NCBI GenBank assembly: GCA_043798555.1
Contig: JAZDOO010000229.1
Span: 1-37,830, forward strand
Length of the DNA stretch: 37,830 nucleotides
Direction: 5' to 3'
Source of the DNA: Pseudomonadota bacterium
GTDB lineage: Bacteria; Desulfobacterota; WTBG01; JAGOGO01
A program made the translations under genes and the position numbers. This document shows, one piece after another, positions 1 to 32,192 of the stretch. How positions within the stretch are numbered: the first letter of the stretch is position 1; each line of letters opens with the position of its first letter. Below the pieces are notes generated by a model. The model was not told the origin of the DNA and ran no database searches. It saw nothing but the letters and a program-made list of their open reading frames with translations.

Positions 1-458
1 CAAACTGAGGTGTACGCTAAAGCCCCGGCCGCAGCTTTTGCCACCAATTGGTTTGCCGGGGCGGAACGATGCTTGGGAACGATGATTCCATGCACACCCA
101 CGGTATTGGCGGTTCGCACAATGGCCCCGAAGTTCCGCGGATCTTCGATGCCGTCCAAAATTAAAAAAAGGGCCTTTTCTTGCGATGTTCGCCAGTGCTC
201 GAGCAGAGATTCGAAACGCTGATAGGAATATGGTGAAACGATTCCTACTACCCCCTGATGGGCTTCTTTGCCCACTAATGTATCAAATCTATTTCGAGGG
301 ATACGCTGAATCTTGATGTTGTGCTGTCGGGCGAGAGCATAAATCTCACTTTTTTTCCCCTTAAGGTTCTCAATGGGCAGGAAAATCTGGTGAACCCGCT
401 CTGGATGGGATTTAATCGTTTCAAGAACCGTATTTATGCCAAAAATAGTTTCCTCCAT
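1..458 (-). CDS. rlmB: 23S rRNA (Gm2251) 2'-O-methyltransferase, TrmH/SpoU family; 3' end runs off the window
   Basis: Not in the ORF track. Manual translation from ATG at 458 gives MEETIFGINTVLE...HQGVVG...FLILDGIEDPRNFGAIVRTA...KAAAGA, with typical RlmB motifs. The frame stays open to the window edge. Confidence 0.9.
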   Translation of the reverse strand, partial: MEETIFGINTVLETIKSHPERVHQIFLPIENLKGKKSEIYALARQHNIKIQRIPRNRFDTLVGKEAHQGVVGIVSPYSYQRFESLLEHWRTSQEKALFLILDGIEDPRNFGAIVRTANTVGVHGIIVPKHRSAPANQLVAKAAAGALAYTSV

Positions 459-16790: not shown

Positions 16791-17069
16791 GACCCACGCG
16801 AAAAGATGGTCAGAAGACATCACTTAAGCCCCCGATCCATTCAGAAAGCAATGGCTGACGCAGTAAAAAAGTCCGGTATCCCCAAAAGGGCAAATGTCCA
16901 TACGCTCCGTCACAGCTTTGCCACTCATCTTTTACAGGATGGATATGATATCCGTACTGTTCAGGAACTGCTTGGACACAAAAGTGTACAGACAACAATG
17001 GTCTATACTCATACCCTGGAAAGTTTGCGAGGAGGGGTTGTCAGTCCGCTGGAAAATCTTCAGTTATAG
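16791..17069 (+). pseudogene. intI: 3' remnant of an integron-type tyrosine recombinase
   Basis: [11 protein letters not shown] (IntI-specific patch), [38 protein letters not shown]. Only about 92 codons remain; the N-terminal two thirds, including the first catalytic Arg, are missing. Confidence 0.85.
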
Positions 17070-17159
17070 AGAGGTAGCGGCGGCTCTTTCGGGTGATAAA
17101 TTGCAATGGGTAACCACGGGGGTTAACGCGAAATTCCCATGGTAATTTGGGTAATAGGG

Positions 17160-18104
17160 ATGAGACAAACAAAGGCTCTGGTAGGAATCATAATTCTTTT
17201 GATGGCCATTTCGCTTCCCGTTGGGGGAAGCGAAGGCGGGAGGTCTACCTCACTGTCTAATTTGGTACCCCTTAAGATCCAAGGCTGGAAGGCAAAAGGA
17301 AAAGATGCGATTTACAACCGGCAAACCATTTACGACTACATGGACGGGGCAGGTGAGATTTATTGTTGGTATGGCTTTCAGGAATTGTTGGTGCGCTGGT
17401 TTGCCAAAGCAGACCAGCCGGATATTGTCCTGGAAATGTTTGACATGGGTTCATCAGAGGATGCCTTTGGGGTCCTCTCTCATGGACGAGAGGGTCAAGG
17501 TGAAGAGGTATGTATTGGACAGTATTCCGAATATAATGGGGGCCAGTTGGTTTTTTGGCAAGGGAGGTTCTATATCAACATCTATGCCATGCGAGAGACC
17601 CCATTGGCCAAGAAGGCCGTGCTTGATCTGGGCAAAACCGTATCCATGGCCATCAGAGTTAATGGAGAAAAACCAAGGTTGATCAGCTACTTACCCACCC
17701 AGGGGTTGATGGAAAAATCCATTCGGTATTTCCATAATCATTTATCCCTGAACCGCTATTACTTTGTGGGGGATGAAAACATTCTTCACCTCGATAATCA
17801 GACCAAAGCGGTTCTGGCCAGATACCACCATAATGGAAGTGAAACCTACCTTCTTTTGGTACAGTACCAAACTCCAAAAAGGGCAAAGGCAGCTTTTGAA
17901 AGTTTCTTAGGTGCCTCTACGCCGGAAGCAAAACAAACAGGTATCATTCAGCTCAAAAACGGCCGATGGTCAGCGGCTAAGATGGAAAATGCTTTTGTTA
18001 TCGCTGTCTTTGATGCACCAACCATGGATGATGCGGAGGCTCTTATGAAAGTGGCCATGGAAAAATTAGAGGGCAAATATTCTAACTCCAAACCCCGGCG
18101 ATGA
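17160..18104 (+). CDS. Secreted protein, DUF6599-like
   Basis: Signal-like N-terminus MRQTKALVGIIILLMAISLPVGG; IYDYMDGAGEIY..YGF, EMFDMGSSEDAFG, FWQGRFYI. The ORF track starts at 17139; the family name is recalled, not searched. Confidence 0.7.
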   Translation: MRQTKALVGIIILLMAISLPVGGSEGGRSTSLSNLVPLKIQGWKAKGKDAIYNRQTIYDYMDGAGEIYCWYGFQELLVRWFAKADQPDIVLEMFDMGSSEDAFGVLSHGREGQGEEVCIGQYSEYNGGQLVFWQGRFYINIYAMRETPLAKKAVLDLGKTVSMAIRVNGEKPRLISYLPTQGLMEKSIRYFHNHLSLNRYYFVGDENILHLDNQTKAVLARYHHNGSETYLLLVQYQTPKRAKAAFESFLGASTPEAKQTGIIQLKNGRWSAAKMENAFVIAVFDAPTMDDAEALMKVAMEKLEGKYSNSKPRR

Positions 18105-19233
18105 TATGCTTGCAGAATTTACATTTCCCGTCTTCTATGTTCTTTTCCAGAATTTCAAATCCTATTCTTCCGACAACCACCTTGCCACAATTGGGGCAAT
18201 AGGTACTCTCTCCCTTATGACCGTAAACATTACCAATATACACATACTTCAGTCCCGCTTCCATGGCAATATTTCGAGCTTTCTCCAAACTCGTTACCGG
18301 GGTAGGGGGGAGGTTCTTGATCTTATACATCGGGGAAAATCGGGTAAAATGGACCGGCACCTCAGTCCCCAGATGACCCTTGATCCACAGGGACATCTCC
18401 CTGATCTCTTTCTCGTCGTCGTTTAAGGTAGGGATGATTAAAACCACGATCTCGTACCAGATCCCGATTTTCTTCAAGGTCTCAAGGGCGTGCAAGACAG
18501 GTGCTAACTCTCCCGAGCAGGTCTCCTTATAGAATTTCTCCGTAAACGCCTTCAAGTCCACCTTAACCGCACTCAAATGCTTGCAGAGGTCAACGAGGGG
18601 CTCTTCAGCGATGTATCCGTTGGATATCATGACGCTTCCAACCCCCTCTTTCTTAGCCAACTGCGCTGTATCATACATGTAGGTGTAGAAAACAACCGGT
18701 TCCGAATAGGTATAGGCTATTGTGGGGGCCTTGTATCCTTTAGCTAACCGGACGATCTCTTCCGGGGACAAGTCGTAACTTTCCACCTGTTCAGGTCGAA
18801 ATTGAGATATCCTCCAGTTCTGGCAAAATCTGCACTCAATATTGCACCCGGCGGTGGCAAGCGAAAGTGCCGTTGTGCCAGGCAGGTAATGAAACAAGGG
18901 TTTTTTTTCGATGGGATCCACATGGAGAACACAGGGCCTTGAATAGACTAACTCATAATATTTCCCCTCCCTATTCTCTTTGTTCCCACAGTAACCCCTT
19001 TCCAAATCTGCTACACTGCACTTTCTCGGACAAATTTCGCACTGAATCTTAAGGTTTTCCAATTTCTTGTAATACATGGACTCCTTCAACGGAAGCTCAT
19101 CCGAACGAGCCTCCGATTCACCCATCAACTTCAAAATTTCGCTTTGCCCAAAGCTTTCAGAAGCAATGCTGGTAAAGCAAAGAGTCCCGGTGACCGCCTT
19201 GAAAAATTCCCTTCTCGAACAGGAAAAACCCAT
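18082..19233 (-). CDS. AmmeMemoRadiSam-type radical SAM enzyme (PflA-like) with a Tat-like leader
   Basis: DPIEKKPLFH, GCNIECRFCQNW (CxxxCxxC), AYTYSEP, VDLKAF, PVHFTRF, YVYIGNV, TYCPNC; N-terminal SRREFFK. Confidence 0.92.
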   Translation of the reverse strand: MGFSCSRREFFKAVTGTLCFTSIASESFGQSEILKLMGESEARSDELPLKESMYYKKLENLKIQCEICPRKCSVADLERGYCGNKENREGKYYELVYSRPCVLHVDPIEKKPLFHYLPGTTALSLATAGCNIECRFCQNWRISQFRPEQVESYDLSPEEIVRLAKGYKAPTIAYTYSEPVVFYTYMYDTAQLAKKEGVGSVMISNGYIAEEPLVDLCKHLSAVKVDLKAFTEKFYKETCSGELAPVLHALETLKKIGIWYEIVVLIIPTLNDDEKEIREMSLWIKGHLGTEVPVHFTRFSPMYKIKNLPPTPVTSLEKARNIAMEAGLKYVYIGNVYGHKGESTYCPNCGKVVVGRIGFEILEKNIEDGKCKFCKHIIAGVWS

Positions 19234-19247
19234 GGCCTTCCCCCATC

Positions 19248-20129
19248 CTAAAGTTCTAATACCTTAATCTTCGTTAAATCGTCCATACCCAACCCCTTCT
19301 TTGCTGCAGTTGCTATATGTTTTGGAGGCCTCTTCGCTTCCTCCAAAGAGGGGAGTCCATTTTCTTTTCGCTTTGTTTCAATAATGTTAGCCCCAACGCT
19401 ATCCGCGGCAACCGGATCAAAACTCATGATCAGCCCGGAAAAGTTCCATCGCCAGCGGGGCTTATAGCTTGGCCCTCCGTTGTATTGGGCTTCAATGCCA
19501 TCGCATACCACCAGCCTCAATTTATCCTTAATGAACGGGTGGGTATTCAAATCAGCAATGTAAGGGTCACAGTTATTATCGTGGTATTTATTGGGGTTGT
19601 GGATTGCGCCGTAGAAATTTTTCAAGCTCAACGTTACTCCGGCCAAATCGTGGTCCTTCAATACCGGAACATTTATCAAAGCAGTACAATGGGTGGATAA
19701 GATCCGGCTAAAGCAGCTTCCGATAGACTCCTGTATCTCGGGCTCTTCGTCGTAACCAACCACCTCTGTCCCGAAACATTTCACCCCGCTGCCCCTCACA
19801 TTTATTATAAAACCCGCCCTCGTCAGATCGCTGCTGGTCCGATCCCAAATAATGATCTTCTCATCAGGCACATCTGCCAATCTTAGACCCTCGACAATGG
19901 CATTCACCAGATCTGGATGCGTTGACATCATCTGTCCCGAGAGACCATTGACCTTTATCCCCACCACATCGTTTGGACTGAAGAGACTTCTCCATGCCAG
20001 AGAGGCGGAGTTCTTACCCGTCAACACTATCAATCCTTTATGGATCGCCTGAACAGTCACTTGCTTATTAACTCGTCCACCGGGGGTAAGGATGTTTGGA
20101 TTACGCGTTAGAATAACCTTCGATTCCAT
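19248..20129 (-). CDS. DUF362 domain protein (no signal peptide)
   Basis: DVVGIKVN, IIIWDR, INVPVLKDHDLAGVTLSLKN, DPVAAD, GLG. Confidence 0.88.
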   Translation of the reverse strand: MESKVILTRNPNILTPGGRVNKQVTVQAIHKGLIVLTGKNSASLAWRSLFSPNDVVGIKVNGLSGQMMSTHPDLVNAIVEGLRLADVPDEKIIIWDRTSSDLTRAGFIINVRGSGVKCFGTEVVGYDEEPEIQESIGSCFSRILSTHCTALINVPVLKDHDLAGVTLSLKNFYGAIHNPNKYHDNNCDPYIADLNTHPFIKDKLRLVVCDGIEAQYNGGPSYKPRWRWNFSGLIMSFDPVAADSVGANIIETKRKENGLPSLEEAKRPPKHIATAAKKGLGMDDLTKIKVLEL

Positions 20130-20205
20130 ACTAAAAAATCTTTACCTTAAAGAAGAGCTGTTCTCCGAACAAAAACTTAAGGGGACCTCTAATAGTTCCC
20201 AATCT

Positions 20206-20274
20206 GTCACTCCCGCGAAGGTGGGAGTCCAGTAATTTCAATTGGTTATGGATTCCTGCTTTCGCAGGAATGAC
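20206..20274. repeat. REP/dRS3-like palindromic dimer (GTCA...TGAC type)
   Basis: GTCACTCCCGCGAAGGTGGGAGTCCA-17 bp-TGGATTCCTGCTTTCGCAGGAATGAC. Confidence 0.85.
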
Positions 20275-20336
20275 ATTTTTAGAGCCAGCCTTAATCGCAA
20301 GTTAACAAAACCCGTCAATTTAGTAGAATAATTAAA

Positions 20337-20364
20337 ATAATATTTCGGTTTTGAAAGATGTCAA
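20337..20364 (-). promoter_or_regulatory. Putative sigma70 promoter for the DUF362-radical SAM pair
   Basis: Minus strand TTGACA-16 bp-TATTAT. Confidence 0.45.
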
Positions 20365-20593
20365 CCAAATTCTTGCTGATTGCAAATTCTTGCTGAGGGA
20401 AAAGTTTAGTAATTTGAAGTTTTAAGATCTTTTAGGGGGTTAATAAAGATCGCTGAACTTTTATTCTAAATTCACATGGTAATTTTTGGGAAAACAGGGT
20501 AAATTAAAAAATATTAACTATGCGATACCATATAACCTCTTTGGCGAATCCCGAGGCGGCTGCGGGGCTGGCCACATTTAAAGGAAACCCTCC

Positions 20594-20836: not shown

Positions 20837-21739
20837 ATGAACCGGAGAGACTTTTTAAAATCAGCGCTCATTGCCAGCGTGGGGGCCACACTTTCAAATA
20901 GCATTGGTCTGCTCATCAAAACCCCGTTGGCTTCGGAAAAAGTTGACCTGGTGGTGGCCCAGGGGACTTCTCCTGCAACGATCACCGCCTCAGCAATTGA
21001 GGCCCTGGGGGGAATGAGAAGCTTCATATCCAGGGGAGACATTGTCGTGGTCAAGCCAAACATAGGGTGGGATCGAACCCCAGAACAGGCGGCCAACACC
21101 AATCCCGAGGTCGTTTCCACTGTGGTAAGACTATCTTACGAAGCGGGGGCTAAAAAGGTAAAGGTCTTTGACCGAACGGTAAATGATGCAAGAAGGTGTT
21201 ATAAACAAAGCGGAATTGCTGATGCAGCAAAAGCCGCTGGTGCGGAAGTGAGTTTTATTGATGACAGGAAATTCAAGACTGTCACCTTAGAAGGTCTTGC
21301 CCTTAAAGAATGGCCTCTTTATACAGATATTCTTGAGGCCGATAAGGTCATCAATGTTCCTATCGCCAAAACCCACGGGCTGGCAACCCTCACCATGGCC
21401 TTGAAGAACTGGATGGGGATAATGGGTGGAAGGAGGGGCATAATTCACCAGCGGCTGGATGAGAGCCTCGTTGACATTGCCACGGTAATTAAACCAACTC
21501 TTACCATACTGGATGCCATTCGCATTTTGACCGCAAATGGTCCACAAGGAGGTAATCTTAGGGATGTAAAGAAGCTCAATACGGTCATTGTGAGTACTGA
21601 TCAGGTGGCGGTTGATGCTTTTGGAGCTACCCTCTTTGGCTTACAGGGGAGTGATCTCGGGTATGTAAGCATTGCCGACCGCATGGGCCTCGGTACCATG
21701 GATCTCTCCAAGGTAAAGATTAAGGGGATCAGGTGCTAA
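20837..21739 (+). CDS. DUF362 domain protein with Tat signal peptide
   Basis: MNRRDFLK plus hydrophobic stretch; VVVKPNIGWDR, AANTNP, INVPIAKTH, MALKNWMG, DQVAVD. Confidence 0.92.
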   Translation: MNRRDFLKSALIASVGATLSNSIGLLIKTPLASEKVDLVVAQGTSPATITASAIEALGGMRSFISRGDIVVVKPNIGWDRTPEQAANTNPEVVSTVVRLSYEAGAKKVKVFDRTVNDARRCYKQSGIADAAKAAGAEVSFIDDRKFKTVTLEGLALKEWPLYTDILEADKVINVPIAKTHGLATLTMALKNWMGIMGGRRGIIHQRLDESLVDIATVIKPTLTILDAIRILTANGPQGGNLRDVKKLNTVIVSTDQVAVDAFGATLFGLQGSDLGYVSIADRMGLGTMDLSKVKIKGIRC

Positions 21740-21801: not shown

Positions 21802-23346
21802 ATGCGAATCTACCGAAAAATTAGTCAAGGACTATTTTTACTCACCTTCTTGTTTCTCTTTTTGCAGACAGAGTCAAAAGGAGGAGATGAGCTGGGGTAC
21901 CCAGTGAAAATTTTTCTTGATTTTGACCCTCTGCTCTTTATCTCCACCTTGCTTTCTTCTCATGCCGTTAGTAAAGGTTTTTATTTCTCTTTCACCTTAC
22001 TTATTGCCACCATCATTCTGGGGAGGGTCTTTTGCGGCTGGGTCTGTCCCTTGGGAACCTTAAATAATCTGGTCAGTTCCCTGAAAAAAGTCCGACCCCC
22101 CGCCGCTCACCTAAACTGGCACAAAGTAAAATATTATATCTTCATCTTCCTCCTTGCAGCCTCGCTTTTCACGCTTCAACTTACAGGCATCCTGGACCCC
22201 CTTTCTTTCCTTACCCGATCCCTTTCTTTAAGTATTTATCCCGTTTTCAACTACGTTATCAGGGCAATCTTTGATACTATCTACAATATCAACCCCCATT
22301 TTATCGTTAACCTGTCGGAGTTCTTGTATACTATAGTAAAGAAGTCCCTCCTCTCTTTTCAGCAGCCTTTTTTCCAACAGGCTCTGTTCCTTGGTTTTTT
22401 ATTCCTTTTAATCCTTGGTCTCAACCTGGTGGAAAAAAGGTTTTGGTGTAAATACCTCTGTCCCCTCGGTGCCCTTCTTGGAATCCTTTCCCGCTATGCA
22501 TTCCTCAAAAGATCCGTAAGCGAGGGATGTGATTCCTGCGGCGCATGTAACCTGGCCTGTCAAGGCGATGCTGCCCCCGACAGCAAGGAAAACTGGAAGA
22601 ACACTGAGTGTCTTTACTGTATGAACTGCGATGACCTGTGCCCTCATAATGCAGTTAGTTTCGGATTTATCAAAAAAAGGGCGGCCGCCTCAATGGATTT
22701 GGGAAGAAGAAAGGTGATTGCATCCATCACTACCGGCGTGCTTGCTGTCCCCTTTTTTAGAATAACTCCCTTGTCACGATCAAGCAGCCTGAATCCAAAC
22801 CTCATTAGACCTCCGGGATCGCTTGAAGAAAAGGAGTTTTTGAAAAAATGTGTGAGATGCGGAGAGTGCATGAAGGTATGCATCACCAATGGGCTGCAAC
22901 CGACCTTTCTTGATGCCGGCCTCGAAGGGATATGGTCTCCCGTGTTGGCTCCGAGGATAGGACACTGTGAATACCGCTGTACCCTCTGTGGCCAGGTCTG
23001 TCCCACTGGTGCGATCGAGAAATTGGAACTGGAAGATAAGCAAAAGATTAAGATCGGGCTCGCCATGATTGACAGAGGGAGATGCCTCCCCTATGCCCAT
23101 GCCACCCCCTGCCTCGTATGTGAAGAAGTATGCCCTACGCCCAAGAAGGCTATATGGCTGGAGCCGGCAACGGGCAAGAACAGGAAAGGGAAAGAGATAA
23201 TTTTGAAACAGCCCAAGGTGGATCTTGACCTCTGTATTGGCTGCGGCATCTGTGAGGCAAAATGCCCGGTTATTGGTGAGCCGGCAATTTATGTAATCAA
23301 TACCGGTGAATCGAGATCGAAAGAAAATCAGCTCCTGTTACTATAA
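21802..23346 (+). CDS. Membrane polyferredoxin, NapH/MauN-like fused to NapG/MauM-like domain
   Basis: Several TM helices, two CxxxCP motifs (FCGWVCP, WCKYLCP), six four-Cys ferredoxin-type motifs, internal GRRKV plus hydrophobic stretch, IRPPG. Confidence 0.9.
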   Translation: MRIYRKISQGLFLLTFLFLFLQTESKGGDELGYPVKIFLDFDPLLFISTLLSSHAVSKGFYFSFTLLIATIILGRVFCGWVCPLGTLNNLVSSLKKVRPPAAHLNWHKVKYYIFIFLLAASLFTLQLTGILDPLSFLTRSLSLSIYPVFNYVIRAIFDTIYNINPHFIVNLSEFLYTIVKKSLLSFQQPFFQQALFLGFLFLLILGLNLVEKRFWCKYLCPLGALLGILSRYAFLKRSVSEGCDSCGACNLACQGDAAPDSKENWKNTECLYCMNCDDLCPHNAVSFGFIKKRAAASMDLGRRKVIASITTGVLAVPFFRITPLSRSSSLNPNLIRPPGSLEEKEFLKKCVRCGECMKVCITNGLQPTFLDAGLEGIWSPVLAPRIGHCEYRCTLCGQVCPTGAIEKLELEDKQKIKIGLAMIDRGRCLPYAHATPCLVCEEVCPTPKKAIWLEPATGKNRKGKEIILKQPKVDLDLCIGCGICEAKCPVIGEPAIYVINTGESRSKENQLLLL

Positions 23347-23402: not shown

Positions 23403-23528
23403 AAGGAGCCAAATCGAGAATCATCCCCCTCGAATTTACGGACAAACGGCTTTAGTGTTCACTCGCAGTCTGGTTTGGACCTTAGACAACGGGCAATAAA
23501 CTCCTATACGAAAGAGGGCATAAACGTT

Positions 23529-24521
23529 ATGGAAACAAACAGCATATCTTCATTCGTTAAACATCATTTTCGGCACTTCAATGCCGCTGCACTGGTTGAT
23601 GCAGCAGAAGGGTATTGTAAGCTTATAGACGCAGGAGGTCATATGCTGGTGACCATTGCAGGCGCCATGAGCACCGCCGAAATCGGCCTCTCTCTGGCGG
23701 AAATGATTCGCCGAGGCAAAGTCCACGCCATCAGTTGCACTGGCGCCAATCTCGAAGAAGATATTTTTAATTTAGTAGCTCATAATCACTATGTTCGTAT
23801 CCCTCACTATCGGCAGCTCACCCCCTTAGATGAGCAGCAGCTTTTGGCCCGCCATCTCAATCGCGTTACCGACACTTGCATCCCCGAGGAAGAAGCCATC
23901 CGGCGGATTGAAAGCGCAATTCTGGATGAATGGGAACATGCTGATAAAAAAGGGGGCCGGTATTTCCCGCACGAGTTTTGTTACCAACTGATCCGGAGCA
24001 AGCGTCTTTCACCTTATTACCAAGTTGATCTGAAAAATAGTTGGGTGGTGGCAGCATGTGAGAACAATCTCCCTATGTTTGTTCCTGGGTGGGAGGATTC
24101 TACCCTCGGTAATATTTATGCCTCCCATTGCCTCCATGGAACCATTCGGAATGTGCACACCGTGCGGAGCGGGATCGAGTATATGATGGAGTTAGCAGAA
24201 TGGTATAAAAGTACCTTCCAAAAACATCCTATAGGATTTTTCCAGATTGGCGGTGGTATTGCCGGTGACTTTCCCATTTGTGTTGTGCCCATGTTACGGC
24301 AGGATTTGAAGATGGAAGACGTTCGATTATGGAGCTACTTCTGTCAAATCAGTGACTCCACGACGAGCTATGGTTCTTATTCTGGAGCAGTACCGAACGA
24401 GAAGATTACTTGGGAAAAATTGGGGGTAGATACTCCCAGGTATATTATCGAATCAGATGCCACGATTGTAGCCCCTCTCATTTTTGCCTATGTGTTAGAA
24501 ACGTCAATTTCAAACTCGTAA
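23529..24521 (+). CDS. Deoxyhypusine synthase-like protein
   Basis: FRHFNAAAL, AGAMSTAE, CTGANLEED, PGWEDST, IGGGIAGDF, SYSGAVPNEKITW.K, IESDATIVAP. ATG 23529 follows a GAGGG RBS; the ORF track starts at 23475. Confidence 0.93.
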   Translation: METNSISSFVKHHFRHFNAAALVDAAEGYCKLIDAGGHMLVTIAGAMSTAEIGLSLAEMIRRGKVHAISCTGANLEEDIFNLVAHNHYVRIPHYRQLTPLDEQQLLARHLNRVTDTCIPEEEAIRRIESAILDEWEHADKKGGRYFPHEFCYQLIRSKRLSPYYQVDLKNSWVVAACENNLPMFVPGWEDSTLGNIYASHCLHGTIRNVHTVRSGIEYMMELAEWYKSTFQKHPIGFFQIGGGIAGDFPICVVPMLRQDLKMEDVRLWSYFCQISDSTTSYGSYSGAVPNEKITWEKLGVDTPRYIIESDATIVAPLIFAYVLETSISNS

Positions 24522-30299: not shown

Positions 30300-32192
30300 C
30301 TATTTATCCTTTGCACAACGAAACCCAATGCTATTAAACTGACTTGTGGGATTCATCTTTTTTCTTTCCCCGCATCGGGAGGTAAAAGCCATGTTGCTCC
30401 ACGATCCTCCCCGCACAACTTTATTTACGCCTTGATCTGGACCTCGAGTGTTCTGGGATGGATTGAGCTCGTCATCATAAGAGGAGTACCCGTCAGCACA
30501 CCATTCCCAGACGTTTCCCGCCATATCATAAAGGCCATACTGATTCGGTGGATAGCTTCCTACTGGCCGAGTACCGTTTGCTCCTCCTTCCCAGCTATTT
30601 AACCGTTCAGGGTCCATTTCATCTCCCCAGGGCCATAACTTGTCTACCAGTCCTCCTCGGGCTGCCTTCTCCCACTCAGCCTCGGTGGGAAGCCTTTTCC
30701 CAATCCAACGTGCATACGTCTGAGCGTCTTCCCAACTCACTAAAACTACTGGGTGATCTCCCTTTCCCGGAGGGTACGTGTTATTTATCCAATTGTATTC
30801 TTTTGCCCATTCTTCATCTACAAAAGGCCCCATATGGCCCGTAGCATCGACAAATTTCTTGTATTCTTTATTGGTAACCTCATGTTTGTCAATATAAAAA
30901 GCTTTTAGATAAACGTTGTGGGCGGGTTGTTCGTCTGCTAACCAGCCACCTTTGCTATCCGGAAATATTTCTAAAATCCGCTCCACTGATTCCTTCGATG
31001 TACCCATAATAAACTCCCCTTCGGGGATTAAGGTCATATCCTTAGGAACGCGGGAAATGCTTATTACATCATGTTTATAAGCAAACAGACCAATCCCCAA
31101 AAGAACTACCACCAATGAAGCTATTGCTACTGATTTCCAGGGAAATGCTCTCCTCGTCTCATGTCTGGAAATACCAGGAACATATTTTGGGGTAATAGGT
31201 TTACCCCTTTTCTTCTCTTTAGGGGTAACTCCCTGGGCCTCTTCAAACCGCCTGAATCTTTCTGTCTCTGAAGGTATATGAGCAATCAATTCCGCTTCTG
31301 TGGCAATAAACATGCTGGTCCGTTTTTCCAACAACTCCCTTATTTCTCCGGCTGTCTGCCATCGTTCTTCGGGTCGCTTAGCCAGCATTTTCATTACCAA
31401 TCTTTCCAGCCGTTCAGGAGCTTTTGGGCAAAGGTCACGCAAAGCAGCAGGGGTATCCTTAAGGTGTTTAAGAAGCGTTGCCATGGGCGTGTCCCCGAAA
31501 AAAGGCACTTTCCCCGTTAACATTTCGTAGAGTACAATTCCCAAAGAATAAATATCTGACTGCGGCCCAATCGAGCGACCCTCGGCCTGCTCAGGAGACA
31601 TGTATTCGGGGGTTCCTATAATCAATCCAGAGGTAGTGACCCCAGCTTCTCCTGAAACGATTTTGGCAATTCCAAAATCGGCAACTTTGACAGAAAAATT
31701 CGGAGAATCACCCGTTATGACTGCCGGGATGAGCATTATGTTACCGGGTTTAATGTCCCTATGAATTACTCCCTGGCGATGAGCTTCTTCTAAAGCCCGC
31801 AGAATCTGAATTGCAATATCAACGGTCTGAGGAATGGGAAGAACACCGTGTTTTTTTATCAAAGTTTTCAGCGTAATTCCGTCAACCCACTCCATGGTGA
31901 TAAATTTCCGGTCTTCTCCCCAGTAGAGATCAAACATTCCCACAATGTTAGGGTTACGAAGTTTACGGGTAGTCTTAGTCTCTAATTTAAACCGCTGAAG
32001 GCTCTGGGGGTCCATCTGAAGTTCAGGCCGAAGAATCTTAATGGCTATAGTGTCGTTTAATTCTTGGTCGTACGCCTTGTAGACCCCCCCCATTCCTCCC
32101 ATACCTATCAGCGCAAGGATTCGATAACGATTAGCAACAACGGTACCTTCAATTTTAGGCAGGATGGGATCTTGAAAAGAAGTTTCTTCCAT
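30300..32192 (-). CDS. Hanks-type Ser/Thr kinase - TM - FGE-sulfatase (SUMF1) domain fusion
   Basis: IGMGGMGGVY, AIK, HRDIKPGN, DFG, GTPEYMSPE; one TM helix; then GEFIMG, RLPTEAEWEKAARGG, YDMAGNVWEW, RGGSW, GFRC. Confidence 0.93.
   Translation of the reverse strand: MEETSFQDPILPKIEGTVVANRYRILALIGMGGMGGVYKAYDQELNDTIAIKILRPELQMDPQSLQRFKLETKTTRKLRNPNIVGMFDLYWGEDRKFITMEWVDGITLKTLIKKHGVLPIPQTVDIAIQILRALEEAHRQGVIHRDIKPGNIMLIPAVITGDSPNFSVKVADFGIAKIVSGEAGVTTSGLIIGTPEYMSPEQAEGRSIGPQSDIYSLGIVLYEMLTGKVPFFGDTPMATLLKHLKDTPAALRDLCPKAPERLERLVMKMLAKRPEERWQTAGEIRELLEKRTSMFIATEAELIAHIPSETERFRRFEEAQGVTPKEKKRGKPITPKYVPGISRHETRRAFPWKSVAIASLVVVLLGIGLFAYKHDVISISRVPKDMTLIPEGEFIMGTSKESVERILEIFPDSKGGWLADEQPAHNVYLKAFYIDKHEVTNKEYKKFVDATGHMGPFVDEEWAKEYNWINNTYPPGKGDHPVVLVSWEDAQTYARWIGKRLPTEAEWEKAARGGLVDKLWPWGDEMDPERLNSWEGGANGTRPVGSYPPNQYGLYDMAGNVWEWCADGYSSYDDELNPSQNTRGPDQGVNKVVRGGSWSNMAFTSRCGERKKMNPTSQFNSIGFRCAKDK

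Follow-up and report, generated by a model that had tools for sequence, protein, structure and literature searches.

Radical SAM proteins make up one of the largest enzyme superfamilies. Their dependence on SAM, on a low-potential electron and on an oxygen-sensitive cluster is the reason why they are regarded as strictly cytoplasmic. A gene in a 37,830-nucleotide contig of a Desulfobacterota bacterium (the whole stretch that was analysed, hereafter the window) raises the question of whether one of them is sent out of the cytoplasm. The first-pass annotation had suggested a rare exported radical SAM enzyme and asked how SAM would reach it there. The gene encodes a protein of 383 amino acids, here called rSAM, whose N-terminus, MGFSCSRREFFKAVTGTLCFTSIASESFG, resembles a twin-arginine (Tat) signal placed ahead of the catalytic domain (Table 1).

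Table 1. Features of the rSAM gene and its neighbours, in positions of the window.
Feature	Position	Strand	Evidence or remark
rSAM gene, 383 aa	18082..19233	-	
Twin-arginine-type leader, residues 1-29, MGFSCSRREFFKAVTGTLCFTSIASESFG	19147..19233	-	R7/R8 invariant, F10 nearly invariant
Tat consensus motif SRREFFK, residues 6-12	19198..19218	-	Conserved consensus; confined to N-termini in the genome
Variable linker between leader and core, residues 30-52	19078..19146	-	Gappy alignment; TIGR04337 match from residue 53
rSAM core, family TIGR04337, residues 53-383 and stop	18082..19077	-	TIGR04337 and Pfam Radical_SAM matches
N-terminal Cys group C65-x2-C68-x3-C72...C82	18988..19041	-	Invariant; within the predicted DUF362a interface
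CxxxCxxC motif C130/C134/C137, binds the SAM-cleaving [4Fe-4S] cluster	18823..18846	-	Invariant in the alignment
C-terminal Cys pairs C346-x2-C349 and C371-x2-C374, zinc-ribbon-like	18112..18198	-	Invariant; weak zinc-ribbon family matches
Intergenic gap between DUF362a stop and rSAM start, 14 nt	19234..19247	-	G-rich ribosome-binding-like stretch, read by eye
DUF362a, 293 aa, PF04015, without signal peptide here	19248..20129	-	Predicted rSAM binding partner
DUF362b, 300 aa, divergent, own twin-arginine leader MNRRDFLK	20837..21739	+	PF04015 E 1.3e-55; strict motif
NapH-NapG-type fused membrane polyferredoxin, 514 aa	21802..23346	+	RR (301-302) before an internal hydrophobic segment, GRRKVIASITTGVLAVPFF
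DUF6599 protein, 321 aa, hydrophobic signal-like N-terminus	17139..18104	+	Convergent; 23-nt overlap with the rSAM 3' end

The catalytic part of rSAM belongs to a known family. It scores 372.7 bits against TIGR04337 over residues 53-382, compared to a curated NCBIfam cut-off of 220, which places it among the AmmeMemoRadiSam enzymes, and all 29 aligned homologues match the same profile. The Pfam Radical_SAM domain is also recognised (E 1.6e-19). Since the TIGR04337 match begins at residue 53, the first 52 residues are an add-on. The first reading of the gene as an intact CxxxCxxC enzyme with extra cysteines at both ends stands: C130/C134/C137 and the flanking groups C65/C68/C72/C82 and C346/C349/C371/C374 are all invariant in the 29 homologues. 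The N-terminal group is a probable auxiliary cluster or metal site. The extra groups are features of the family, since a leaderless paralogue has them too.

A sequence search of the PDB returned no solved structure from the rSAM family; its sole match was the pyruvate formate-lyase activating enzyme (PFL-AE), with an E-value of about 2e-4. PFL-AE is also the best fold match (3cb8_A, E 2.7e-13, TM-score 0.78 on the target). Membership of the PFL-AE family (TIGR02493) was considered and rejected because rSAM reaches only 48.8 bits where the cut-off is 231.75, and the likeness is thus one of fold only.

If translation began at Met38 (MGESEARS), which is in frame, the twin-arginine stretch would remain untranslated and the leader would be an artefact of the gene call. 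This downstream start, raised from the outset as a way in which the idea could fail, is highly improbable. Met38 is not conserved among the homologues, whereas the RR pair and the phenylalanine are, none of the 106 full-length homologues has a break in the frame across the leader, and inspection by eye found no Shine-Dalgarno-like stretch ahead of the Met38 codon. The ATG of the leader (19231-19233) lies 14 nt (19234-19247) past the TAG stop of a gene for a DUF362 protein, DUF362a, as the first-pass annotation had noted, and the gap holds a G-rich, Shine-Dalgarno-like stretch, GGGGGAAGG, again read by eye. The two genes are probably co-translated. Contigs (not reads) from the X20 groundwater RNA library contained nothing usable over the rSAM gene; they match only 21945-22203 and 22433-22611, in the polyferredoxin gene, and a repeat near 20204-20294.

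In the 29 homologues, which share 60-81% identity, R7 and R8 are invariant and F10 is nearly so, and the remaining leader is variable. The RR pair is found in 106 of the 120 nearest homologues; in the remaining 14 the gene call is truncated at the N-terminus, beginning at the domain in nine and inside the leader in five. Over the 106 leaders, the consensus is S/T, R, R, E/D, F (100/106), L/I/F, K/R. A strict form of the motif, [STNDG]RR.F[LFIVM][KRQ], was searched for in ORFs of at least 150 residues from the window's own genome. It occurs within the first 40 residues of 7 out of 2572 ORFs and, as a control for chance, only once in the 808,039 residues past position 40. Besides rSAM and DUF362b, a second DUF362 protein encoded in the window, it marks two 4Fe-4S dicluster proteins, a molybdopterin oxidoreductase, a protein with a sulfite-oxidase-type Mo domain and a solute-binding protein. 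In this genome, the strict N-terminal motif is predictive of Tat cargo. Both the proposed closeness of SRREFFK to the Tat consensus and the conservation of its arginines among homologues are borne out.

The hydrophobic region of the leader had been regarded as weak. However, its best 12-residue Kyte-Doolittle mean of 1.51 falls within the range of the other six motif-bearing proteins (1.12-2.02), and the RR motif is followed by an uncharged stretch of 13 residues; the TATFIND threshold is about 13 uncharged residues. The Pfam TAT_signal profile (PF10518) gave no match to rSAM at E-values up to 1 and matched 4 of the 29 relatives (best 7e-4), the profile having 21 positions and weak matches being dropped by the HMMER filters. 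In the structure model, pLDDT is 37-45 across residues 1-30. Residues 22-24, S-I-A, fit the -3/-1 rule by eye and are a candidate signal-peptidase site. Signal calls were made by a hydrophobicity heuristic and reading by eye. With 54 of the genome's 1610 ORFs flagged, the loose "Tat-RR" heuristic over-calls; the call for rSAM is based on the strict motif and the alignments. In sequence terms, the leader of rSAM is a conserved twin-arginine signal.

Profile searches of the genome found TatC (249.5 bits) and TatA (66.7 bits), both on contig C33, and the presence of LpxC indicates that the cell has a periplasm. TatC is also present in all five other genomes with RR-leader copies of rSAM, compared to one of five genomes with Sec-like leaders. 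Because the leader is conserved, the Tat machinery is present and the enzyme core is intact, export of rSAM is a serious possibility, as had been proposed, and the question of how SAM would be supplied outside the cytoplasm is a real one. The word "rare", on the other hand, does not fit the family: a leader of some kind is carried by 106 of the 120 nearest homologues and by 55 of the 80 species-level loci (the 80 highest-ranking among at least 598 matches), with L061 left unclassified and L023, L047 and L088 reclassified by eye. Sec-type hydrophobic N-termini take the place of the RR leader in 11 of these 80 highest-ranking loci, mostly in Omnitrophota. All of the compared sequences are from metagenome bins.

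In a tree of 81 rows made from the catalytic domain alone, the window's rSAM falls in a clade of 26 rows (SH-aLRT 99) from at least 10 phyla, in which 25 leaders are of the RR and one of the KR type. The window's genome also encodes a leaderless rSAM paralogue, accompanied by a signal-less Memo-AMMECR1 fusion. One or two leaderless copies that score above the TIGR04337 cut-off are found in this genome and in each of the five other genomes with an RR copy. These amount to seven further copies, each of which starts at the domain. As far as their sequences tell, the paralogues differ in the leader only.

The enzyme was initially described as having no AMMECR1 or Memo partners nearby. Indeed, neither gene is found in the window. 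However, rSAM is not an orphan: the genome-wide search that had been suggested returned two AMMECR1 and two Memo matches on contigs C128 (where they are fused), C291 and C334, and none on the window's contig, C69. The co-occurrence of TIGR04337 with both families thus holds at the level of the genome. The stand-alone AMMECR1 has a hydrophobic N-terminal extension of 53 residues and the stand-alone Memo one of 37, both of them signal-like, while the fused protein has none.

A Memo-AMMECR1 gene lies within 6 kb of rSAM in 12 of 25 clade relatives, and all 11 such neighbours that are not cut by a contig end are signal-like by the heuristic, against a background of 449 of 1610 ORFs. The operon order in relatives is DUF362 with an RR leader, rSAM with an RR leader and Memo-AMMECR1 with a Sec or lipoprotein signal. 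Enzyme and partners are not always predicted to be on the same side of the membrane, however, since six leaderless rSAMs (L033, L058, L065, L067, L070 and L078) adjoin signal-bearing Memo-AMMECR1 genes and two RR-leader copies (L031 and L035) adjoin a signal-less AMMECR1.

Of the 26 clade rows, 13 have DUF362a directly upstream of rSAM; the 55 loci outside the clade gave no DUF362a-type match. Nine of 11 DUF362a orthologues have an RR leader of their own, which is missing in the window's copy and in L017. A leader lost from the annotation of the window's copy was considered and rejected: a stop lies four codons upstream of the start, and no frame of 20130-20500 contains an RR-coding remnant. 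Since DUF362a lacks a signal here, it may be co-exported. Titles and abstracts in the literature on DUF362 do not describe a function; one paper uses DUF362 as an outgroup to LarA.

Modelling of the complex supports the binding of DUF362a by rSAM. The median ipSAE was 0.61 (0.61, 0.65 and 0.61 in three runs), compared to 0.01 for the best of three controls; of 157 solved complexes 116 reach this mark, as do 2 of 215 mismatched pairs, counts that are only rough for the alignments used here. The three runs shared at least 95% of contacts, with a partner pLDDT of at least 92. The modelled interface consists of invariant residues on both proteins, including residues 72 and 75-83 of rSAM. In the model, the cluster loop of rSAM abuts the HNPNKYH loop, an invariant stretch of DUF362a. 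Such a model expresses likeness of fit rather than binding in a cell. DUF362a is possibly a co-exported passenger or a substrate of rSAM.

The way in which the HNPNKYH loop meets the cluster loop in the model looks like an enzyme on its substrate, and the closest fold is that of PFL-AE, which activates a protein. Both observations would suit an rSAM whose leader engages the Tat machinery or a chaperone while the enzyme itself stays in the cytoplasm, as a maturase or escort that modifies DUF362 or Memo/AMMECR1 precursors just before their export. The problem of SAM and reductant would then vanish, and the enzyme would resemble those radical SAM maturases whose exported substrates are modified while still in the cytoplasm; most DUF362 proteins have RR leaders of their own, and the pairing of a cytoplasmic enzyme with an exported partner does occur in the family, in the six leaderless loci above. 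However, a full Tat consensus would be superfluous for such a role, and yet it is kept in all 26 clade rows across at least 10 phyla. The family also functions without a leader, as the leaderless paralogues in the same genomes indicate, and all other carriers of the strict motif in the window's genome are classical exported cargo. In known vestigial Tat leaders, for example in NarG, the RR pair is gone, which also counts against a cytoplasmic maturase. This arrangement is thus considered unlikely.

Further along the window are DUF362b, on which TAT_signal scores 18.9 bits, below its cut-off of 22.7, and the fused polyferredoxin, which is a candidate for electron supply toward the periplasmic side. 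The latter falls below the curated cut-offs for NapG (NF007012, 111.9 vs. 269) and NapH (NF007013, 84.5 vs. 234), and is found near rSAM in just 4 of the 26 clade rows. On the other side of rSAM, homologues of the DUF6599 protein are also encoded close to rSAM in L014, L023 and L029.

Another gene recurs near rSAM in related loci. A polytopic, spermidine-synthase-like protein is encoded within 6 kb of rSAM in 31 of 55 leader-bearing but only 3 of 24 leaderless loci (within the 80 highest-ranking of at least 598 matches). This association could also be expected if the N-terminal segment were only a membrane tether that holds the catalytic domain on the cytoplasmic face, near a lipid or isoprenoid substrate and the spermidine-synthase-like protein. 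RR, KR/RK and Sec-like leaders interchange across the tree, which suggests that membrane association is the shared need, and export does not readily account for an Fe-S enzyme that has a Sec-type N-terminus. Nevertheless, the positive charges of the RR, KR and Sec-like leaders precede the hydrophobic segment, and by the established positive-inside rule this would place the domain outside. The h-region of 13 residues, with its hydropathy of 1.51, lacks the length and hydrophobicity expected of a stable transmembrane helix but is typical of a Tat signal, and many relatives have A-x-A-like sites past it, as read by eye. A mere tether is thus quite unlikely.

The reading preferred here, with moderate confidence, is that the gene product is a paralogue of the radical SAM enzyme of AmmeMemoRadiSam systems that is directed to the envelope. 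rSAM would fold in the cytoplasm, where it would gain its [4Fe-4S] cluster or clusters and possibly SAM, and would bind DUF362a before export. TatABC would then move it across the cytoplasmic membrane by means of the SRREFFK leader, with the signal-less DUF362a travelling as a passenger. Once outside, either free or anchored by an uncleaved leader, rSAM would act with the signal-bearing Memo and AMMECR1 encoded elsewhere, probably with the involvement of a polytopic membrane protein that has a spermidine-synthase (AdoMet-fold) domain. Electrons could come via the adjacent NapH-NapG-type polyferredoxin. As is usual for these enzymes, SAM would be cleaved reductively to give a 5'-deoxyadenosyl radical, directed at the HNPNKYH loop of DUF362a or at a substrate held by the partner proteins. 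Inferred in this account are export itself, the joint passage of DUF362a, the path of the electrons and the identity of the substrate.

To our knowledge, the periplasm has no SAM pool. SAM could be pre-bound and used once, regenerated as a cofactor or supplied via the membrane partner. Likewise, we know of no route for the delivery of Fe-S proteins through Sec; either the proteins with Sec-type leaders (11 of the 80 highest-ranking of at least 598 matches) behave differently, or what the leaders have in common is some other purpose than the export of an active enzyme.

A bolder and more doubtful extension, offered tentatively, is that an entire radical SAM pathway operates beyond the cytoplasmic membrane. 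The rSAM-DUF362 pair, loaded with Fe-S, would be delivered by Tat, and Memo and AMMECR1 by Sec; electrons would flow from the quinone pool via the NapH-NapG-type polyferredoxin, and an AdoMet-fold membrane domain would handle or supply the adenosyl cosubstrate at the outer face. If so, SAM or a derivative would have to be exported, or the enzyme would have to carry SAM out and regenerate it in each cycle, and the Sec-type leaders of Tat-poor lineages would imply Fe-S insertion outside or a cluster-free role.

The predicted export signals on rSAM and its likely partners suggest that SAM-dependent, oxygen-sensitive chemistry may take place outside the cytoplasm. If export is real, radical chemistry would occur in the cell envelope, where the supply of both SAM and electrons must be solved. 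The long-unexplained Memo/AMMECR1/radical SAM system also gains a handle in the two parallel versions in one cell, of which the envelope version has extra testable parts: DUF362, the membrane-bound spermidine-synthase-like protein and the polyferredoxin. Burroughs and colleagues (J Biol Chem, 2019) reportedly linked Memo systems to nucleotide-base and isoprenoid modification. A search of titles and abstracts returned only passing mentions of AmmeMemoRadiSam and no description of an exported radical SAM enzyme, although Burroughs et al. 2019 may already note signals on bacterial Memo proteins.

Parallels to single parts of the proposed system are known. Certain Tat substrates leave the cytoplasm as heterodimers in which a single partner bears the signal (PMC10924467). 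As in such hitchhiker pairs, the signal-less DUF362a is encoded beside a signal-bearing cofactor protein with which its binding model passed. In contrast, 9 of the 11 orthologous rSAM/DUF362a pairs have RR on both proteins, so hitchhiking would apply only to the window's genome and L017. No radical SAM enzyme was found among known Tat hitchhiker cases in titles and abstracts. For the fused NapH-NapG polyferredoxin of delta proteobacterium MLMS-1, reporter fusions show that both Sec and Tat are needed and that the Fe-S domain is outside (Tooke et al. 2017, eLife, PMC5449189). The window's polyferredoxin shares with it, as described there, a NapH-like membrane part, an RR pair with a weakly hydrophobic helix and a NapG-like poly-[4Fe-4S] domain; it differs in scoring below the NapG and NapH cut-offs, and is linked to rSAM by neighbourhood alone.

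Radical SAM maturases of exported substrates are not known to carry an export signal themselves, and the substrate is exported once modified. In the HXS system, a radical SAM enzyme is paired with a Tat-signal protein (PMC13128918). In contrast to such maturases, the enzyme itself carries the signal in the window. PFL-AE (3cb8, 8fo0, 3c8f), the best structural match, acts on a protein loop, as modelled here for DUF362a, but has no leader and no flanking Cys groups and is cytoplasmic.

The closest known system remains the cytoplasmic AmmeMemoRadiSam enzyme. rSAM scores above the same TIGR04337 cut-off, has the same CxxxCxxC motif and flanking Cys groups and is accompanied by Memo and AMMECR1 in the genome. 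Unlike the cytoplasmic form, it begins with about 52 additional residues that include a twin-arginine signal, falls in its own clade, has partner genes that carry signals and is linked with DUF362, to which relatives add a spermidine-synthase-like membrane protein. rSAM is a variant of this known system that is predicted to be exported.

The leader of the radical SAM enzyme, with its SRREFFK motif, is on several lines of sequence evidence a real feature of the protein. The NCBIfam model TIGR04337, for the AmmeMemoRadiSam system radical SAM enzyme, has a cut-off of 220 and gives 372.7 bits over residues 53-382, so the first 52 residues lie outside the family core. We know of no function for the AmmeMemoRadiSam family beyond its name. 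Across 29 homologues that are 60-81% identical, R7 and R8 never change and F10 hardly ever does, in a leader that is otherwise variable and gappy. The RR pair, whose conservation the first-pass annotation had proposed as a check, is found inside the leader in 106 of the 120 best database homologues, with the consensus S/T, R, R, E/D, F (100/106), L/I/F, K/R; among the remaining 14, nine gene calls start at the domain and five within a recognisable leader downstream of the expected RR. A true start at a downstream methionine had also been considered, but Met38 is not conserved among the homologues whereas RR is, and a start-codon artefact is thus highly improbable.

The motif is also rare in the right way. 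When the strict form [STNDG]RR.F[LFIVM][KRQ] was sought in the window's genome (ORFs of at least 150 aa), 7 ORFs out of 2572 had it among their first 40 residues, and it turned up only once in the 808,039 residues beyond. Besides the radical SAM enzyme and the divergent DUF362 protein (DUF362b), five proteins carry it, all from classical Tat cargo classes: two 4Fe-4S dicluster proteins, a molybdopterin oxidoreductase, one with a sulfite-oxidase-type molybdenum domain, and a solute-binding protein. The suspicion that the hydrophobic region is too weak fails, since its score of 1.51 is inside the range of the other motif carriers (1.12-2.02). TatC and TatA are encoded on another contig (C33), and the presence of LpxC indicates a diderm cell. 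However, the 21-position Pfam TAT_signal profile does not match the window enzyme (among 29 relatives it matches four, at E up to 1), which counts against export, as does the fact that we know of no periplasmic SAM. It is improbable that the leader is a membrane tether holding the enzyme on the cytoplasmic face.

An AlphaFold model of the enzyme, built from an alignment of 29 sequences, has a mean pLDDT of 79.3 and a pTM of 0.80; residues 1-50 score 37-60 and the core beyond is confident. The cysteine groups pointed out earlier are real and invariant in the 29-homologue alignment (C65/C68/C72/C82, C130/C134/C137 and C346/C349/C371/C374). Since the flanking groups are common to a leaderless paralogue, they are a family trait rather than a mark of the leader-bearing form. 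The best fold match is the PFL-activating enzyme 3cb8_A (E 2.7e-13), although the score against the PFLA family model is far below cut-off.

The start codon lies 14 nt past the stop of the upstream DUF362 gene (DUF362a), and a G-rich, ribosome-binding-like stretch can be read in the gap. Contigs from a run that may be the source sample (X1) cover 17139-20175 with 6 differences, and a soil-run contig from another study (X8) spans the DUF362a-leader junction (19165-19315) with none, so the gene order cannot be put down to misassembly in a single sample. One groundwater RNA library (X20) yielded no usable contig on the enzyme gene. Within the 700 nt that separate the divergent DUF362 genes, a short palindromic element has a summed depth of hundreds to thousands, against 1-12 in its flanks, in all four metagenome and metatranscriptome runs. 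Contigs break there, and the element behaves like a multi-copy, REP-like repeat common to many organisms.

DUF362a is predicted to bind the radical SAM enzyme. Residues 50-383 of the enzyme were modelled with DUF362a in three runs, both chains being supplied as alignments, and gave ipSAE values of 0.61, 0.65 and 0.61, against 0.01 for the best of three controls. For scale, 116 of 157 solved complexes reach the ipSAE mark, as do 2 of 215 mismatched pairs, counts that are only a rough guide here because our own alignments were used. At least 95% of contacts agree between runs, partner pLDDT is at least 92, and the modelled interface is built from invariant residues of both proteins. In the model the enzyme sits on DUF362a much as an activating enzyme would on a protein loop, which fits its best fold match. 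The HNPNKYH stretch of DUF362a, (nearly) invariant in orthologues, is at the centre of the modelled contact with the cluster loop. DUF362 belongs to the same Pfam clan as the N-terminal domain of the lactate racemase LarA, which tethers its cofactor to a lysine. The HNPNKYH motif may be where a cofactor binds or a modification is made.

Leaders were sorted by a heuristic of hydrophobicity and motif, with three corrected by eye, in the 80 best loci out of at least 598 matched among contigs of one genome per species. In this set, which is skewed to relatives of the leader-bearing query and consists of metagenome bins with uncertain start codons in GC-rich loci, 32 loci have RR, 12 KR or RK, 11 a Sec-like hydrophobic leader and 24 none, while one is unclassifiable. 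In a tree of the catalytic domain alone (81 rows, IQ-TREE quick mode), the window enzyme falls in a 26-row clade (SH-aLRT 99) with 25 RR leaders and one KR, drawn from Planctomycetota, Acidobacteriota, Myxococcota, Thermodesulfobacteriota, Zixiibacteriota, Eiseniibacteriota, Verrucomicrobiota, Chloroflexota, Armatimonadota and KSB1. In 13 of the 26 rows the gene immediately upstream, on the same strand, is DUF362a, separated by 14 to 234 nt or, in L017, overlapping by 14 nt. Among the 55 loci outside the clade no DUF362a-type match was found; L060 has a weak DUF362b-type match. Of 11 DUF362a orthologues, nine have an RR leader of their own, the exceptions being L017 and the window copy, which has a stop four codons upstream and no leader remnant.

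The window's genome encodes a second, leaderless copy of the enzyme (339 aa, contig C72) that clusters with leaderless archaeal and bacterial copies. All five other genomes with an RR copy also have one or two further copies above the family cut-off, and all seven of these begin at the domain. The leader thus sets paralogues apart within single cells. TatC was found in five of five genomes with RR leaders and in one of five with Sec-like leaders, the latter being small bins of unknown completeness in which its absence is soft evidence.

In Bacteroidota, Ignavibacteriota and some Thermodesulfobacteriota copies, KR or RK replaces RR (e.g., KREFLK); these form a separate branch with a conserved LWKWSKEA-like motif just ahead of the core. 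The Sec-like N-termini, from Omnitrophota, Auribacterota and a Chlamydiae bin, have positive charges and then a very hydrophobic run that often ends on an A-x-A-like site. To our knowledge, no route takes an Fe-S enzyme through Sec, and the Sec-type leaders therefore count against export.

The first-pass annotation had noted the lack of adjacent Memo and AMMECR1 partners. This holds for the contig, but whole-genome searches found both elsewhere: a signal-less 477-aa Memo-AMMECR1 fusion (from the chosen start; Memo domain about 14 residues in), a 228-aa AMMECR1 (domain from residue 54) and a 313-aa Memo (domain from residue 38). The stand-alone proteins begin with positive charge followed by a hydrophobic stretch, which, with the signal-less fusion, points to one putative cytoplasmic and one putative envelope version of the system. 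The signal-bearing genes, on contigs C291 and C334 (loci L097, L098), have surroundings that look envelope-related, with ORFs named from their translations: a 1054-aa AsmA-like and an acyltransferase-like ORF on C334, and a lipoprotein-like and a small thioesterase-like ORF on C291.

Relatives carry the envelope version as an operon. Fused Memo-AMMECR1 lies within 6 kb of the enzyme in 12 of 25 clade loci, and all 11 neighbours not cut by a contig end are signal-like by a heuristic that also flags 449 of 1610 ORFs in the window's genome, the 11 not being phylogenetically independent. Several have lipobox-like ends by eye. However, six leaderless enzymes adjoin signal-bearing partners (L033, L058, L065, L067, L070, L078) and two RR-leader enzymes adjoin signal-less AMMECR1 (L031, L035). 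Enzyme and partners are thus not always predicted on one side, which counts against export and keeps alive the idea that the enzyme acts on its partners before they leave. That the enzyme is a maturase or escort which stays in the cytoplasm and does no more than dock at Tat is rather unlikely, and we lean towards genuine Tat-dependent export, with the enzyme soluble or anchored by its leader and probably complexed with DUF362a.

A polytopic, spermidine-synthase-like membrane protein (700-860 aa, PF01564; NF037959 above cut-off in two of five tested) lies within 6 kb at 31 of the 55 loci with a leader and at 3 of the 24 without, and these three have signal-bearing Memo-AMMECR1. By eye, the copy in the window's genome has seven hydrophobic segments ahead of its AdoMet-fold domain, and its even-numbered loops are rich in arginine, an arrangement that would place the domain outside. 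The window's divergent neighbours are DUF362b, which has an RR leader, and a 514-aa polyferredoxin of the NapH-NapG type, in which RR precedes an internal hydrophobic segment. For the MLMS-1 protein of this architecture, insertion by Sec plus Tat with the NapG-like Fe-S domain outside has been shown (PMC5449189). Homologues of polyferredoxin, DUF362b and DUF6599 occur near the enzyme in a minority of loci (L014, L015, L023, L029). A deoxyhypusine-synthase-family gene directly follows the polyferredoxin gene; as relatives have a spermidine-synthase-like partner, a connection with polyamines is conceivable. An integrase fragment just upstream of the DUF6599 gene may mark an old insertion or a rearrangement boundary of the module.

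Positions of the features discussed (in the window unless stated) and loci of related genes
Feature	Position or loci	Strand	Details
Radical SAM enzyme	18082..19233	-	383 aa; N-terminus MGFSCSRREFFKAVTGTLCFTSIASESFG
DUF362a	19248..20129	-	
Palindromic element	20204-20294		ttcctgcgaaagcaggaa
DUF362b	20837..21739	+	
Polyferredoxin	21802..23346	+	
Deoxyhypusine-synthase-family gene	23475-24521	+	PF01916
Integrase fragment	16806-17069		87 aa, C-terminal, phage-type; PF00589 positions 101-169 of 172
Kinase fusion	30300-32192	-	630 aa; Ser/Thr protein kinase + FGE-sulfatase (formylglycine-generating-enzyme-like) domains
Modelled interface, radical SAM side	residues 72, 75-83, 133, 144-149		
Modelled interface, DUF362a side	residues 177-183 (HNPNKYH), 218-221		
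Spermidine-synthase-like protein, window's genome	G000 contig C8:12347-14698 (L099)		at contig end
Spermidine-synthase-like protein, other loci	L011, L014, L017, L021, L023, L027, L030, L036, L050, L077		
Sec-like leaders	L034, L037, L038, L040, L042-L047, L057		Omnitrophota, Auribacterota, a Chlamydiae bin
KR/RK leaders	L056, L064, L069, L072, L073, L081, L082, L084, L085, L088		

In the literature covered, mostly titles and abstracts, we found no description of a radical SAM enzyme that itself bears a Tat signal. Memo-AMMECR1 systems have reportedly been the subject of a comparative study by Burroughs et al. in 2019, which was outside this scope and may mention Memo signals. What appears to be new here is an envelope-directed AmmeMemoRadiSam system, as predicted from sequence, extended by DUF362, a membrane AdoMet-fold protein and a polyferredoxin.
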